A stretch of 38,374 bases of DNA from a virus: UHGV virus genome UHGV-0295649, one strand, 5' to 3'. The position numbers and the translations under genes are program-made. Shown piece after piece: positions 22,047 to 24,977 of the stretch (its first letter is position 1; every line of letters begins with the position of its first letter). The notes under the pieces were generated by a model. It was not told the origin of the DNA and ran no database searches. It saw nothing but the letters and a program-made list of their open reading frames with translations.

Positions 22047-22092
22047 TTTAGCCCTCCTTTCATGATAAAGTTCGAAAAAATCTCTTTTCCTG

Positions 22093-22148
22093 ACAGCCCC
22101 CTCCGTTTCATCACCCCCAAAAAATTTGCGATTTATTTTAAGGGGGGG
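22093..22148. promoter_or_regulatory. candidate cos/packaging site: GC-rich imperfect palindrome CCCCC...GGGGGGG upstream of terS
   Basis: GACAGCCCCCTCCG...CACCCCC-(23 nt AT-rich)-GGGGGGG in an otherwise AT-rich genome. HNH plus HK97-type terminase suggest cos packaging. Confidence 0.3.
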
Positions 22149-22466
22149 TTATCTCACCATCGGAATGAAAGCTTCAGCGAAGTCAATGTAATAATTAATC
22201 TCTTCAATACTATATCCAAAAACATTTTTTATTCTTTCGACGTTATTATCTTTATTCAACGCTTCTCTTACTTGATTCACTTTGTATTTACTACAACAGT
22301 TATCTGATAACAGATCCCTAATACCTACATAGCGAACGTATATCAAACGTTTAATTAATCCCTGAGTATAAGATGAATACTCTTCAATCTTTTCTGTATC
22401 ATACTCTCTGCCATTATCATTGATGATCATGCACTTACCACCTTTCACTTGCATCGAAGTTAGCAA
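22149..22466 (-). CDS. hypothetical protein
   Basis: ORF between HNH and terS. Likely start MIINDNGREYD. Confidence 0.5.
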   Translation of the reverse strand: MLTSMQVKGGKCMIINDNGREYDTEKIEEYSSYTQGLIKRLIYVRYVGIRDLLSDNCCSKYKVNQVREALNKDNNVERIKNVFGYSIEEINYYIDFAEAFIPMVR

Positions 22467-22779
22467 AGCTTTCTATCTTCTTCTCTTGTTTATCTAATGC
22501 TGTAAGATATCTGCCATGAACTTCATTATGATGTTCAACACATAAACAAATAAGATTATCTAAATCTAAAGCTAAGTCAGGTCTATCCTTGACTTCCTTT
22601 ATATGATGAACGTTCTCTACTCTATGATACTTACCTAGTCTTCTACACTCTTGGCATTCATAGTGATCTCGTTTCATCGCTTTCTCTCTAAGCCTGCGCC
22701 ATTTAGGAGACTGATAGAACTTAACCAAACGATCTTCTCTTGTCAACTGTAATAGCCATCTATAGAATTCCTCGGTCAT
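22435..22779 (-). CDS. HNH endonuclease (packaging-associated)
   Basis: CQEC...HHIKEV...N...CLCVEHHNEVHG is an HNH motif. Adjacent to the terminase genes. Confidence 0.85.
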   Translation of the reverse strand: MTEEFYRWLLQLTREDRLVKFYQSPKWRRLREKAMKRDHYECQECRRLGKYHRVENVHHIKEVKDRPDLALDLDNLICLCVEHHNEVHGRYLTALDKQEKKIESFANFDASERW

Positions 22780-22804: not shown

Positions 22805-22972
22805 TTAATGCTTAGCTATTCTTTTGCCATACAATGGAATAACTTCATTGTTTTCCTTTCGTTTATATGTATCGCTCTTTATTGGTCTTCTATACTCATA
22901 TACTTTTTCGCCATTACCTTTATGAACAGTGATTACTTCATACTTCTGTTCTAAGTATTGTGGTCTATACAT
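22805..22972 (-). CDS. small protein (55 aa; not in the ORF track)
   Basis: MYRPQYLEQKYEVITVHKGNGEKVYEYRRPIKSDTYKRKENNEVIPLYGKRIAKH. Perfect RBS AAGGAGG 7 nt upstream. Confidence 0.45.
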   Translation of the reverse strand: MYRPQYLEQKYEVITVHKGNGEKVYEYRRPIKSDTYKRKENNEVIPLYGKRIAKH

Positions 22973-22991
22973 TGTTGTTTCCTCCTTTGTG

Positions 22992-23022
22992 CAAAAATAA
23001 AAAGACCACTCAAAGAGTGATC
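22992..23022 (-). terminator. rho-independent terminator (minus strand) abutting the RBS of the first late gene
   Basis: Minus-strand stem GATCACTC/GAGTGGTC followed by UUUUUAUUUUUG. The U-tract ends 4 nt before AAGGAGG. Confidence 0.5.
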
Positions 23023-23113
23023 TAATATGTAATAGTAACTTGCACGATGCACAAAACGCGTACGAAATTGCGCACCCCTATATTTTTAAACCGCCGATGC
23101 CTCGGTTGCTTAA

Positions 23114-23212
23114 AGTCGCTGGAGTGGGATTGCACCACTCACGAGAACTTACCAGGCTCTCACGAGGCTACTCGCCATTTACCGCTGCGTCTTCTACTTC
23201 CGCCACAGTGAC
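23114..23212 (-). ncRNA. tRNA-like structured RNA, copy B
   Basis: Minus-strand read GTCACTG-TG-GCG(GAAGTAGAAGA)CGC...GAGTGG-TGCAATC-CCACTC-CAGCGAC. Acceptor-like, D-like and T-like arms are present. Central domain is non-canonical. Confidence 0.35.
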
Positions 23213-23320
23213 CGAAGCTTGGTGGTGTACAGATAGCACACTTACTACATTGCCGTACGTAGCACCGTATAGCTTCTTAACGATCTTTTTTCGGTAGTCG
23301 TAACCGTCATAGGCATTTAA

Positions 23321-23409
23321 TGTCGCTGGCAAGGAATCGAACCTTGCATGGTTGCCGAAGCATTGACCTAGCACACATGCTTAGCGTCTACCCTTTCCGC
23401 CACAGTGAC
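23321..23409 (-). ncRNA. tRNA-like structured RNA, copy A (canonical T-loop GGTTCGATTCC)
   Basis: Minus-strand read GTCACTG-TG-GCG(GAAAGGGTAGA)CGC...AAGCAT(13-nt loop)ATGCTT...GCAAGG-TTCGATT-CCTTGC-CAGCGACA. No canonical anticodon arm. GC-rich island. Confidence 0.4.
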
Positions 23410-23598
23410 ACTATAAAATTATTCTTGGCTGCTACTATTTTTTATTTTGCCCATTTTTAAATCCAATCATATAGACATTAAGACAGAGCGCAAAAATTGA
23501 AATTATTAATGGAATCATTTCTCTTCACCCACCTTTAGTTATCGTGTGAATAATTAAAAAACAATAGACAGCAACAAAATAACATTGCTTTGATAATT

Positions 23599-23708
23599 TG
23601 GTATAAACCACTATAAATTTCTTTTCTTGCAATTATTTTTAATATATGCTAGATTATCAACCGATATAGTCACTGCCTGTACTAGCGGAAACTAGTGCAG
23701 GTTTTTTG
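23599..23708 (+). ncRNA. candidate sRNA: extended -10 TGGTATAAA to terminator
   Basis: TGGTATAAA at 23599-23607. Strong terminator at 23676-23708: stem CCTGTACTAG/CTAGTGCAGG, loop CGGAAA, then TTTTTTG. No ORF between. Confidence 0.35.
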
Positions 23709-23744
23709 TTCTATTTACTCAAAAGTTATTACGATAAATTAATA

Positions 23745-23772
23745 TTGTGAAAATAAATACTAAGCGTATAAT
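23745..23772 (+). promoter_or_regulatory. sigma70-type promoter TTGTGA-16-TATAAT for the plus-strand moron gene
   Basis: Read directly, about 55 nt upstream of the ATG at 23828. Confidence 0.5.
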
Positions 23773-23827
23773 TTTATTTATCAGCGAGTGGTCCGCTGAA
23801 ATATAAAACAAGGATGTGCAAGACAAC

Positions 23828-24103
23828 ATGTATAAACCCTACATGATTAGTTATGATCTTAATAACCCAGGGCAAAAGTATGATAAAGTATTTGAAATAA
23901 TAAAAGAATTTGGGGCATATATAAAGCTACAAAAATCTTTTTGGTTAGTTAAAACTAATTTGAATCCAAATCAAATGTGTGAAAAATTAAATACAGTACT
24001 TGATAATAACGATTCCTTATTCATCTGTGAACTGCAAAAAAATTATCAAGGTAGAGCTACAGAGGAAAATTGGAAATTCATTAACGAACATATTTTCTCT
24101 TAG
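23828..24103 (+). CDS. small opposite-strand protein with Cas2/VapD-like ferredoxin-fold sequence pattern (91 aa)
   Basis: MYKPYMISYDLNNPG..KVFEIIKEFGAYIKLQKSFWLVKT...NDSLFICEL resembles the YDL/FG/Q.SV pattern of Cas2. Own promoter. Opposite strand to all phage genes. ORF track starts at the GTG at 23816. Confidence 0.3.
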   Translation: MYKPYMISYDLNNPGQKYDKVFEIIKEFGAYIKLQKSFWLVKTNLNPNQMCEKLNTVLDNNDSLFICELQKNYQGRATEENWKFINEHIFS

Positions 24104-24252
24104 TAAGGATTAGATATTTTTTCTCTGTTTAAACAATTGCAAATACCGTCAATATCTGAATTAGAAACACTTACCTTTTGCTCCTTGCTACTACCAATAG
24201 CTTGGAGCAATTCTTGTATTTCTTCTGGAGTGCCTTCTACTGATAATTTCAT
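24100..24252 (-). CDS. small protein (50 aa) convergent with and overlapping the 3' end of the 23828-24103 gene
   Basis: Internal start MKLSVEGTPEEIQELLQAIG... with strong RBS GGAGGGAAG. A 12-bp inverted repeat lies just upstream. Confidence 0.45.
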   Translation of the reverse strand: MKLSVEGTPEEIQELLQAIGSSKEQKVSVSNSDIDGICNCLNREKISNPY

Positions 24253-24279
24253 TTTTCTTCCCTCCAATACATAAATTAA

Positions 24280-24339
24280 TAGACAGCAGCAGTTGAAAGA
24301 CGACAAGAACATGTTTAGTTTTGTGAGTGCTGCTGTCTA
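24280..24339. promoter_or_regulatory. 12-bp perfect inverted repeat TAGACAGCAGCA / TGCTGCTGTCTA (36-nt spacer), plus a third half-site at 24409-24418
   Basis: Read directly. Lies in the promoter region of the 24100-24252 small gene. Candidate operator. Confidence 0.5.
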
Positions 24340-24441
24340 ATCAAAATAAACAGCAACCGATGAAGAATTTAGGAGGAGTTGAATTCACATCCTTTTCTTC
24401 ATAATTAGTTGCTGTCTATCTAAGAAGAAGTTTAAAACGAT

Positions 24442-24470
24442 GAGGGAGATTGCCTCCCTTCGTTTATTTT
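24442..24470. terminator. terminator hairpin GAGGGAG-ATTGC-CTCCCTT plus CGTTTATTTT (possibly bidirectional, at the 3' end of arpU)
   Basis: Read directly. T-rich on the plus strand. On the minus strand it follows the ArpU stop at 24561. Confidence 0.5.
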
Positions 24471-24560
24471 GTCGATCCTGTTTCCTAATCTTTCGACACT
24501 ACCATAATAACACTGGTAAATGTCTAAAAACCGCCATCATTCCGCCAAAAAACCGCCAAA

Positions 24561-24977
24561 TTATTTATAAGCAATTATTTTTCCGTGTTTATATGCTTCT
24601 GCAAACTCTATTAGAGCTTCCGACTTCATCCGTTGTATACTTCTTTCTGAATAACCCACTTCACGGCTAATTCTGTAGTTTGAGAAGCTATCTGGCACAC
24701 AGAAGCTGTAGTAGAGTATCTGACGACTAATCAGACTAAGAGCCATCAAAGCCGCTAGAATCGCATCTCTCTCCGTTTCTATATCCATCATCTGAATAAT
24801 CGCGTCTTCTGCCTTATTGCCATGCTTCGGTGCCTTCGGCATATCCGTTATAATCGGCGACTTAATATCTATCAAAGAGCGACCTGCCATCCGCTCCAAA
24901 CGCCGAAAGTTCTTCAGCACATCTCTCGCATTACATCTTGTCTGTTTGAAATCTACCTCTCGTAACAATTGCATCAA
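24561..24977 (-). CDS. arpU: ArpU-family late transcriptional regulator (sigma region-4-like)
   Basis: 138 aa immediately upstream of the packaging module. Residues ...YSERSIQRMKSEALIEFAEAY form a C-terminal HTH. Typical ArpU size and position. Confidence 0.7.
   Translation of the reverse strand: MMQLLREVDFKQTRCNARDVLKNFRRLERMAGRSLIDIKSPIITDMPKAPKHGNKAEDAIIQMMDIETERDAILAALMALSLISRQILYYSFCVPDSFSNYRISREVGYSERSIQRMKSEALIEFAEAYKHGKIIAYK

Follow-up and report, generated by a model that had tools for sequence, protein, structure and literature searches.

A number of described RNAs combine parts of a tRNA with other sequence. According to Chen et al. (2014, PMC4201824), YrlA is a non-coding RNA in which a tRNA-mimicking module, with an acceptor-like stem and D and T arms, is joined to a second module. 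In mascRNA/MALAT1 and in mitochondrial "tRNA punctuation" a tRNA shape within a long transcript recruits RNase P and RNase Z, which free a small tRNA-like RNA and set the ends of the RNA on either side, and the mechanism that we propose below is similar. YrlA is also said to occur in some phages and to be handled by tRNA enzymes. Ponchon and Dardel reportedly engineered a "tRNA scaffold" in which foreign RNA takes the place of the anticodon arm and the chimera is processed and stabilised like a tRNA; Larkin et al. reportedly described in 2002 a minimalist tRNA-Leu, E. coli LeuRS being said to need only the acceptor, D and T regions. Here we describe two tRNA-like elements, copies A and B, on the minus strand of the viral genome UHGV-0295649 (38,374 nucleotides, the whole of which is referred to as the window). 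They are members of a large and apparently undescribed family of phage RNA genes. The finding is real: this is a widespread, robustly covarying and apparently unannotated RNA family, a kind of tRNA-like non-coding RNA. The best explanation of the family, which is widespread in phages of Bacillota, is that it derives from leucine tRNA, the upper half having been kept and the anticodon arm replaced.

Fold, family and strand of the elements

The window is an Enterococcus faecium-type prophage, and the elements lie in it between an ArpU activator gene and the HNH and terminase genes. Their positions are as follows.

23409..23322, with discriminator A at 23321, minus strand: tRNA-like copy A, with the A-type scaffold (from the sequence, the covariance model and relatives).
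23213..23320 (108 nt), minus strand: spacer between the copies, which accompanies the pair A and B in other prophages.
23212..23115, with discriminator U (T in DNA) at 23114, minus strand: tRNA-like copy B, with the B-type scaffold (from the sequence, the covariance model and relatives).

The copies start 197 nt apart, G1 being 23409 in copy A and 23212 in copy B. Both begin with 5' GTCACTG, followed by TG (U8 and G9) and a D arm of the form GCG-GAA...AGA-CGC. Both end with the acceptor 3' strand CAGCGAC, which in copy A occupies 23328-23322, opposite 23409-23403, and in copy B 23121..23115. An A4.C69 mismatch is present in both acceptors, leaving six of the seven positions paired. The D arm is GCG-GAAAGGGUAGA-CGC in copy A and GCG-GAAGUAGAAGA-CGC in copy B. 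The T arms, GCAAGG-UUCGAUU-CCUUGC and GAGUGG-UGCAAUC-CCACUC, respectively, are directly adjoined by the acceptor 3' strand. All features listed in a preliminary description made from the sequence of the window, including the shared mismatch and both T arms, were found in place. The same was true of the GC-rich island that it had reported: G+C content is 45-54% over 23050-23400 and about 30% on either side.

Copy A has the core of a tRNA, with a 7-bp acceptor, D and T arms, U8, A14, G18-G19, U54, C56 and A58. Copy B deviates from this core in having a D loop without GG and a G at position 55. Both copies follow the order of parts common to the family: a 7-bp acceptor, UG, GCG-GAA-N5-AGA-CGC, a variable centre that closes with YAU or YGU, a T arm with a 6-bp stem and a 7-nt loop whose third base is C, and the adjoining acceptor complement. 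The window contains one copy of each scaffold subtype, A with GGG/UUCGAUU and B with the GAAGUAGAAGA D loop and an xGCAxxx T loop. The B-type D loop was also found with an unrelated acceptor, TCCTGGA/TCCAGGA, and the T stem GTGAGG/CCTCAC.

A covariance model of the scaffold, built partly on identical scaffolds from other contigs, was run over the whole window with filters off. Matches with E<0.05 were obtained solely at the halves of the two copies: 26.8 bits (5' half) and 15.3 bits (T arm) for copy A, 21.8 and 15 bits for copy B. Since the model was unable to span the variable centre and split each copy into halves, it was used only as a check of specificity.

Copy A is present in identical form in several Enterococcus prophage contigs, and many such contigs have elements identical or nearly identical to those of the window. 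The spacer recurs with few substitutions at other loci (L006, L010, L031, L040, L076, L078, L082, L104 and L109), in some of them behind first elements with other centres. The CAGCGAC acceptor end is a minority form, found in 28 of 122 Enterococcus elements as against 88 with CAGTGAC, which pairs perfectly. At acceptor pair 4-69 all four combinations, A-U, G-C, G.U and A.C, occur in Enterococcus loci, which suggests that 5' and 3' halves of differing origin have recombined around swapped centres.

Family members were collected from IMG/VR contigs in two scans, the counts from which are lower bounds. The first used the motif GTCACTGTGGCGGAA-N4-10-AGACGC; the second fixed the D arm alone and demanded a base other than A at acceptor position 4. 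The exact 5' motif was present in more than 110 contigs, and a T arm with the matching acceptor 3' strand was found in 122 of 125 occurrences. The second scan contributed at least some 80 further elements with at least 51 distinct acceptor stems, together with about 15 genuine tRNA-Leu genes that share the D arm. Genomes were scanned with the pattern TGGCGGAAWRGGTAGACGC-N35-65-GGTGCAAATCC, which specifies the D arm and T loop only and leaves the stems open. This unbiased set comprises 65 matched species and 65 elements, 64 of them complete. Its hosts are nearly all Bacillota (Lactobacillaceae, Bacillaceae, Listeria, Lachnospiraceae, Oscillospiraceae and Erysipelotrichaceae), with a few metagenome-assembled genomes placed in other phyla. 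Altogether the architecture of 7-bp acceptor, U8-G9, Leu-type D arm, hypervariable centre, 6-bp T stem with 7-nt T loop and acceptor 3' strand recurs in more than 200 viral contigs, and 65 bacterial species have prophages that carry it.

A DNA similarity search against GenBank phages at default stringency gave no match. Relaxed BLAST against the same phages found the conserved halves, and the element is annotated in none of the records. The GenBank members are the temperate Enterococcus phages EH-TP1 and VEsP-1, with a remnant in phiFL2A, Geobacillus phages D6E and PK3.5, Lacticaseibacillus phage R29.1 and the 150-kb lytic Schiekvirus phages. The acceptor of the Geobacillus element, CCTGCGG/CCGCAGG, is wholly different but fully complementary, and that of EH-TP1 is GTCGCTG/CAGCGAC. 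Rfam 15 gave nothing on the elements, either in the window and 18 related loci at the gathering threshold, or in 22900-23700 at E<=10 and 23400-24600 at E<=1. No description of the family was found in a literature search that included literal motifs and the supplements of Enterococcus RNA maps, most subscription journals being outside its scope. One lead from the literature, the tRNA fragments bound by AcrIIIA1, proved unrelated.

Pairing was analysed in 89 distinct scaffolds with the centre cut out. In these, 98.6% of cells pair, compared with 35-45% after a shift of the 3' partners by 1-3 columns, and changes on both sides of a pair were observed at seven of seven acceptor pairs and five of six T-stem pairs. 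Because pairing had been among the criteria for parsing this set, and the search pattern had prescribed its D stem, an independent test was run on the unbiased set. There the acceptor is paired at all seven positions in 60 of 64 elements, with 52 different sequences, and the T stem at all six positions in 62 of 65. The pairs number 798 Watson-Crick, 27 G.U, 3 A.C and 4 other, and the stems are 96% Watson-Crick. The covariation first noticed between the two T stems of the window is therefore borne out much more strongly than two copies could show, and the comparison with related prophages proposed at that time finds the elements conserved and their stems covarying.

The sixth T-stem pair is G-C in 57 elements of the unbiased set, A-U in five and C-G in two. 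As this pair covaries, the acceptor/T helix consists of 7+6, that is 13 bp; genuine tRNA-Leu genes from the same scans have 7+5 pairs. Position 17 of the D loop and position 55 of the T loop also co-vary, G17 being accompanied by U55 in 11 of 12 cases and another base at 17 by G55 in 74 of 77 (Fisher 1e-10, phylogeny ignored). This co-variation fits an elbow formed by the D and T loops.

The excess of G.U (27) over A.C (3) indicates selection on the RNA of this strand and not on DNA or on the complementary transcript. We therefore rejected a plus-strand RNA. The plus strand of the window in isolation folds slightly better, because A.C turns into G.U there. A protein-coding remnant was likewise rejected. 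The open reading frames (ORFs) across the region are short, and they do not appear conservable because related loci differ by 18-20-nt swaps of the centre; with the stems covarying, the degraded coding gene that the preliminary description had kept in mind as a refuting case finds no support.

The strand-specific ratio also bears on the proposal that the elements act as DNA only, for example as a cos or pac site, a recombination or attachment site, or a boundary of module exchange. A GC-rich region upstream of packaging genes would suit such a site, and the conserved flanks around swapped centres, with the four combinations at pair 4-69, suggest recombination in the flanks. Yet a ratio of 27:3 is unlike the symmetry of a DNA-level signal, tRNA tertiary positions and the co-variation of D and T loops are conserved, and the element occurs in tRNA arrays of lytic phages and far from prophage ends. 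In HNH-type cos phages, moreover, one expects the cos site to lie in the stretch from the HNH gene to terS, which in this prophage would put it at about 22050-22150. A site of this kind is extremely unlikely. Nor was the earlier suggestion of an attachment-site remnant supported: both halves are present with compensatory pairing, the locus is some 20 kb from the prophage end and the tRNA-Met gene, and members occur in lytic-phage tRNA arrays as well.

The variable centre and comparison with decoding tRNAs

Neither copy is called by ARAGORN, which found a tRNA-Met at 2420-2493 as the only tRNA of the window and no tmRNA in it. At gathering thresholds this gene was also the sole match of Rfam 15 in the window. 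When applied to 202 family elements and to the 65 elements of the unbiased set, ARAGORN called 1 and 0, respectively; with introns allowed it reported real tRNAs and a few doubtful cases only. The Rfam tRNA model RF00005 had no match in 22900-23700 even at E<=10, and the tmRNA model RF00023 matched only an 11-nt fragment of a T loop in the same interval (7.1 bits). The scan with covariance models that had been recommended thus yields no tRNA call on either copy, in agreement with the original view that neither is a standard tRNA.

The 5-bp stem and 7-nt loop of an anticodon arm are present at the canonical site in neither copy: at this position a 4-bp stem is found in both, closed by a UGUG tetraloop in copy A and by a 16-nt loop in copy B. 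The discriminator in the unbiased set is A in 35 elements, T in 22, C in 5 and G in 2. CCA is not encoded, and the 3' trailers are U/A-rich. With no anticodon arm, a 13-bp helix, a varying discriminator and no encoded CCA, the elements cannot decode. The window has C-G at pair 3-70, and family members vary freely at this pair, with no conserved G3.U70.

The centre of copy A consists of 36 nt and forms two small hairpins, AGCA-UGUG-UGCU and GGU(CAA)UGC-UUCG-GCA-ACC. In one relative (L043) the first of these is AGGCA/UGCCU, a compensatory change. The 6-bp stem with a 13-nt loop proposed in the preliminary description can be drawn, but it is broken by the variants AAGCAC... and AAGGCA...UGCCU of relatives, in which the two small hairpins are preserved instead. 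The centre of copy B is 46 nt long and its 3' end forms a 6-bp hairpin with the 7-nt loop CUGGUAA. This hairpin, GAGAGC/GUUCUC, is preserved in relatives through changes from G-C to A-U or G.U. Its loop follows the pattern of an anticodon loop but is located at the position of a variable arm, and the loop triplet differs among close relatives (GGU, AGU, AGG and GGC).

These details have to be set against the possibility that the elements are unusual decoding tRNAs, either intron-containing tRNA-Leu or suppressors with a hidden anticodon arm. The loop of copy B would agree with this, as would the A73 discriminator of copy A, A73 being the leucine identity base. One IMG/VR contig (L224) carries a 373-nt element with the family D arm that resembles a tRNA-Leu(UAA) whose anticodon loop is interrupted by some 290 nt, perhaps a group I intron. 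However, the copy B hairpin is out of place and its would-be anticodon changes between close relatives, copy A has tetraloops only, and centres of 7-36 nt are too short for an anticodon arm or a self-splicing intron. The 13-bp helix, the varying discriminator and the outcome of the ARAGORN search with introns point the same way, and a decoding function is extremely unlikely.

Across the family the centres range from 7 to more than 220 nt, mostly 40-105 nt, and are mutually unrelated. The 125 occurrences of the first scan include at least 55 distinct centre sequences of 34-224 nt that belong to about 20 unrelated types; the shortest centres of the family have 7 nt (L204) and 21 nt (L134). The same 150-nt centre is present in the temperate phage VEsP-1 and the lytic phage EFDG1. 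Centres that are strongly structured or rich in T-loop modules were considered and rejected, the signal being weak: the mean z-score of folding relative to shuffled sequence is -0.8, and T-arm-like hairpins occur in 6 of 127 centres with 0.6 expected. A general interpretation of the centre as an intron or a tag ORF is ruled out by the centres of 7-36 nt and by the lack of any shared motif.

Rearranged members were also observed. In phiFL2A (GQ478084.1, L124 about 1481-1534) a 54-nt remnant, GTCACTGTGGTGGAATATAGACCATGCAAGGTGCAAATCCTTGCCAGTGAC, has lost the D stem and the centre; at the matching position VEsP-1 (L125 1501-1705) has a full element, and the leaders of the two phages are near-identical. 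In nine further members (L147, L157, L175, L194, L209, L222, L235, L244 and L246) the T loop carries a long insertion, GGUGAC-UAUACGAGUA...-AAAUCC, which splits UGCAAAU after its second or third base and whose initial sequence recurs among these members. At two loci (L050 and L052) the 5' half is fused to unrelated sequence.

The phiFL2A remnant and the two fused 5' halves are what decaying leucine-tRNA pseudogenes, drifting without function after the loss of the anticodon arm, might leave behind. A D arm that does not differ from the one in genuine phage tRNA-Leu of the same scan, the failure of tRNA finders to call the elements and the A.C mismatch in both window copies would be in keeping with such decay. 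Against this, stems that are 96% Watson-Crick over 52 acceptor sequences, with G.U far more frequent than A.C, imply purifying selection on an RNA and no drift, and the derived features are family-wide in 65 species and hundreds of viral contigs. We consider decay very unlikely.

Genomic setting and proposed role

Real tRNA or tmRNA genes lie within 500 nt of 45 of the 202 elements, on the same strand in every case. In EFDG1 (KP339049.1) the element starts directly past a tmRNA within a tRNA array, and at another locus (L140) it stands among four tRNAs. The EFDG1 tmRNA (L121 2651-3001; RF00023, 140.6 bits) is itself unannotated in the GenBank record. In the unbiased set the nearest upstream ORF on the same strand (n=60) belongs to the RinA family in 10 cases and to the ArpU family in 9, so that these two together account for at least 19, and matches a sigma-70-family model in up to 7 more. 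The commonest families in the two nearest downstream ORFs are the small and large terminase subunits and HNH endonucleases. The window agrees with this pattern, its elements lying on the late-gene strand in the interval from the ArpU activator to terminase, where the following features were identified.

24561..24977, minus strand: ArpU-family late-gene activator (TIGR01637, 155 bits with a cut-off of 43; phrog_248, transcriptional activator).
24530..24559, minus strand: ArpU boxes TTGGCGG / TTGGCGG / ATGGCGG, directly past the arpU stop codon; putative late promoter region.
23034..23110, minus strand: third structured leader element, from 5' AGCAACC(GAGG) to 3' AGUUACU.
22993..23023, minus strand: terminator-like hairpin AGAUCACUC-UUU-GAGUGGUCU (23023..23003, 9 pairs) followed by the U run TTTTATTTTT.
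22972..22805, minus strand: 55-aa gene, first of the late genes.
22779..22435, minus strand: HNH endonuclease, second of the late genes (PF01844).

The ArpU boxes are arranged as in phiFL2A, in which ArpU binds to the three 7-nt repeats distal to arpU and terS expression depends on them (PMC3753634). We infer that the tRNA-like elements sit in the 5' leader of an ArpU-dependent late transcript, on the late-gene strand. This leader is lengthened here to about 1.5 kb by cargo, namely a 70-aa gene, a divergent 95-aa gene and a 27-aa hydrophobic ORF. The terminator-like hairpin abuts the ribosome-binding site (RBS) AAAGGAGG of the first late gene, the ATG of which is at 22972, and the placement of the elements upstream of the late operon and before a terminator was thus described correctly at the outset. 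Most Enterococcus relatives have the same hairpin after their elements. Given its location directly ahead of the late RBS, the late genes need read-through.

The fold, the family, the strand, the non-tRNA status and the genomic context are established, and we propose the following role on this basis. The features of a tRNA that are recognised by RNase P and RNase Z are its acceptor/T helix and the elbow of the D and T loops, and RNase Z substrates of Bacillota have no CCA and U/A-rich 3' trailers. The parts of a class II tRNA that make up this helix and elbow are kept in the body, namely the 7-bp acceptor, U8, G9, the 3-bp D stem with its Leu-type loop and the T arm, with a U just before the T stem placed so that it could pair with A15; the anticodon arm has given way to a lineage-specific insert. 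Transcribed within the ArpU-dependent late leader, or within the transcript of a tRNA array, the elements would be cut by RNase P at G1 and by RNase Z past the discriminator. Excision would free stable L-shaped RNAs of about 90-100 nt and at the same time sever the leader. The freed RNAs would be unreadable by the ribosome. Their tRNA-like handle may engage a tRNA-binding factor of host or phage, the variable module providing specificity, as a decoy or sponge in phage-host conflict.

On balance we think it probable that the elements are trans-acting, non-decoding tRNA mimics that carry a variable module. The role of phage non-coding RNA or decoy tRNA, one of those listed in the preliminary description, is thus the best explanation, and the RNase P/Z processing signal listed beside it is the main rival; both are live. 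A role in trans is favoured because the derived features, a 13-bp helix and a UGCAAAU loop with a co-varying D loop, are superfluous for a cut site and would bar translation; neither the helix nor the loop is found in real phage tRNA-Leu of the same scans. It is also favoured because centres are held at 40-105 nt with compensatory changes and because identical centres move between temperate and lytic phages. More tentatively, the family may form a new and widespread modular class of RNA. A handle derived from tRNA-Leu, made up of the 13-bp helix, the Leu-type D arm and an altered elbow, would serve for excision and stability by way of the tRNA-maturation enzymes of the host and for recognition by a dedicated partner. 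The variable module would be the business end, diversifying in conflict of phages with hosts or with other phages. Such RNAs could, again tentatively, be decoys or sponges that occupy, for instance, defence nucleases directed at tRNA or further factors that bind tRNA.

The alternative is a purely cis function, in which the tRNA-like body serves only to have RNase P and RNase Z cut the late leader of 0.7-1.5 kb, the released RNA and its centre being functionless. The cut might part upstream cargo transcripts from the late mRNA, set the 5' end of the latter, or govern passage through the terminator. We regard this function, and these purposes, as possible but doubtful. It would explain why the conserved parts are those which RNase P and RNase Z recognise in tRNA, and it is in line with the varying discriminator and with the terminator-like hairpin between the elements and the late RBS. 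A real tRNA would do as well for this purpose, however, and is often nearby. The 13-bp helix and the UGCAAAU loop, needless for cleavage, are kept across Bacilli and Clostridia; members occur in tRNA arrays of lytic phages, where punctuation already exists; and centres are usually kept at 40-105 nt with compensatory changes rather than deleted.

Several points weigh against a trans-acting role. The elements strongly prefer the interval between a RinA, ArpU or sigma-like activator and the terminase genes, and a cis role in the late transcript would account for this equally well or better. The weak structure of the hypervariable centres, their near absence in two members (L204 and L134) and the phiFL2A remnant fit a centre of no importance. 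No conserved protein partner was found near the elements in an all-against-all BLASTP of neighbour ORFs from 46 diverse loci and in Pfam scans of flanking ORFs, the recurrent neighbour proteins being limited to terminase, HNH and late activators. The 13-bp helix shifts the RNase P ruler by one pair, which makes the cleavage site uncertain. The A.C mismatch in the acceptors of both window copies, together with the weakened helix of the third element, could mean that the copies of this phage are mildly degenerate. Finally, late-promoter transcription, maturation by RNase P and RNase Z, stability of the RNA and the role in trans are all steps that we infer.

The third element follows a tRNA-like element in many Enterococcus loci, where its conserved ends are GCAAC(C/T)GAGG and GTGTAGGTTGCT, with the 3' end (GTGTA)GGTTGCT. 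In relatives the 3' end GGUUGCU forms a 7-bp closing helix round a variable interior of 60-90 nt; the 3' AGTTACT of the window introduces two C.A mismatches. In Lacticaseibacillus phage R29.1 (L123, about 1745-1812) the ends of the third element enclose a T arm. In the stretch 22989-23053 (minus strand), the predicted fold pairs UUGUGCA upstream of the terminator-like hairpin with UGCACAA just before the Shine-Dalgarno sequence.

The genes for TerS and TerL lie further downstream of the HNH gene, with a match to Terminase_4 (PF05119). A small G+C bump (0.43) is present at 22050-22149, past the HNH gene, in the gap that separates a 105-aa ORF from TerS. Over the late genes the identity to Enterococcus phage 4995_1 is 97%; this phage has other cargo between its ArpU gene, mis-annotated as "autolysin", and the 55-aa gene. 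The interval from activator to terminase is a hotspot for defence and anti-defence cargo. A gene with a Tad2-like (Thoeris anti-defence 2) domain stands immediately downstream of one family member (L128 6083-6514, minus strand), and in the genome set one of the proteins encoded downstream is a ThsA Macro-domain protein.

The 27-aa hydrophobic ORF of the window, MIPLIISIFALCLNVYMIGFKNGQNKK (23435-23518, minus strand), has a strong RBS and gave no match in protein-family searches. It is found just upstream of the element in about 28 of the 122 Enterococcus occurrences. A plus-strand terminator-like hairpin (23675-23710) lies just upstream of it, in a layout that recalls small-toxin/antisense-RNA loci. 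The 95-aa cargo gene (within 23735-24103, plus strand) belongs to phrog_1090 and has a weak Cas2-like match of 22.8 bits, below the cut-off of 24.5. It stands behind a conserved promoter/operator cassette, TTGTGA-16-TATAAT followed by the inverted repeat TCAGCGAGTGGTCCGCTGA; the cassette also occurs in other prophages, where it drives other genes and directly abuts the tRNA-like element. By eye, a further leader hairpin can be drawn at 24344-24420 (minus strand), with GATAGACAGCAAC and GTTGCTGTTTAT as its arms and an inner hairpin, GGATGTGAA...CTCC, between them. Its 5' arm is repeated as TTAGACAGCAGC (24329-24340), and this second copy has a partner, GTTGCTGTCTATTG, about 750 nt downstream (23562-23575, minus strand), so that the cargo genes appear to have been inserted into the loop of a hairpin. 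At other loci, again by eye, the outer stem has another sequence but is still paired, GGCGGCAC/GTGCCGTC being one case, and UUUAU at its end immediately precedes the tRNA-like element.

Comparison with known systems

If our reading of the covariation is true, all standard annotation tools overlook an abundant and well-folded RNA gene that is present in hundreds of phages and prophages, among whose hosts are enterococci, lactobacilli, listeriae, bacilli and gut clostridia. This gene would be a case of natural reuse of the tRNA body as a carrier of RNA modules, fixed at the switch of late activation and DNA packaging. A covariance model of the family would close a blind spot in the annotation of phage genomes. 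For phage biologists the candidate functions are RNA-based control of late-transcript processing and RNA-based counter-defence. For structural biology the family offers a scaffold with dozens of natural inserts, in which the 13-bp helix, the co-variation of G55 with the D loop and the T-loop insertions are to be explained.

Leucine tRNA (class II, RF00005) is evidently the ancestor of the family. Both have a 7-bp acceptor, U8, G9, A15 with a U before the T stem, and U54, C56 and A58 in the T arm. The 3-bp D stem and its loop GAA-(A/U)(A/G)GG-UAGA are identical to those of phage tRNA-Leu from the same scan. A hairpin is found at the site of the long variable arm, and both often occur in tRNA arrays. 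The family differs in having no canonical anticodon arm, in its 6-bp T stem (13 pairs in the helix rather than 12) and in a T loop that is mostly UGCAAAU with G55. Its discriminator is not a fixed A, which argues against general leucylation, CCA is not encoded, and its members are undetected by the tRNA model and ARAGORN.

With the tRNA-like domain of tmRNA (RF00023) the family shares an acceptor and T arm that close the molecule and an insert in place of the anticodon arm, and tmRNA too is sometimes phage-encoded. Unlike tmRNA, the family has a full Leu-type D arm and no conserved G3.U70, tag reading frame, pseudoknot ring or Rfam match, and its centres are far shorter and mutually unrelated.

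YrlA is permuted, ending in a helix that binds Ro60, and its genes lie beside rsr, whereas the 5' and 3' ends of the family pair as an acceptor stem. No Rfam match to YrlA or Y RNA was obtained in the region, and rsr is not among the identified neighbours (ArpU, small proteins, HNH and terminase), although no search aimed at rsr was made. Systems of the mascRNA type are eukaryotic or organellar; the family differs from them in its full D arm and large variable insert, and its cleavage is a prediction. The tRNA scaffold and the minimalist tRNA-Leu are laboratory constructs, whereas the family is natural. If it is indeed built of modules, it would be the natural counterpart of the engineered tRNA scaffold.

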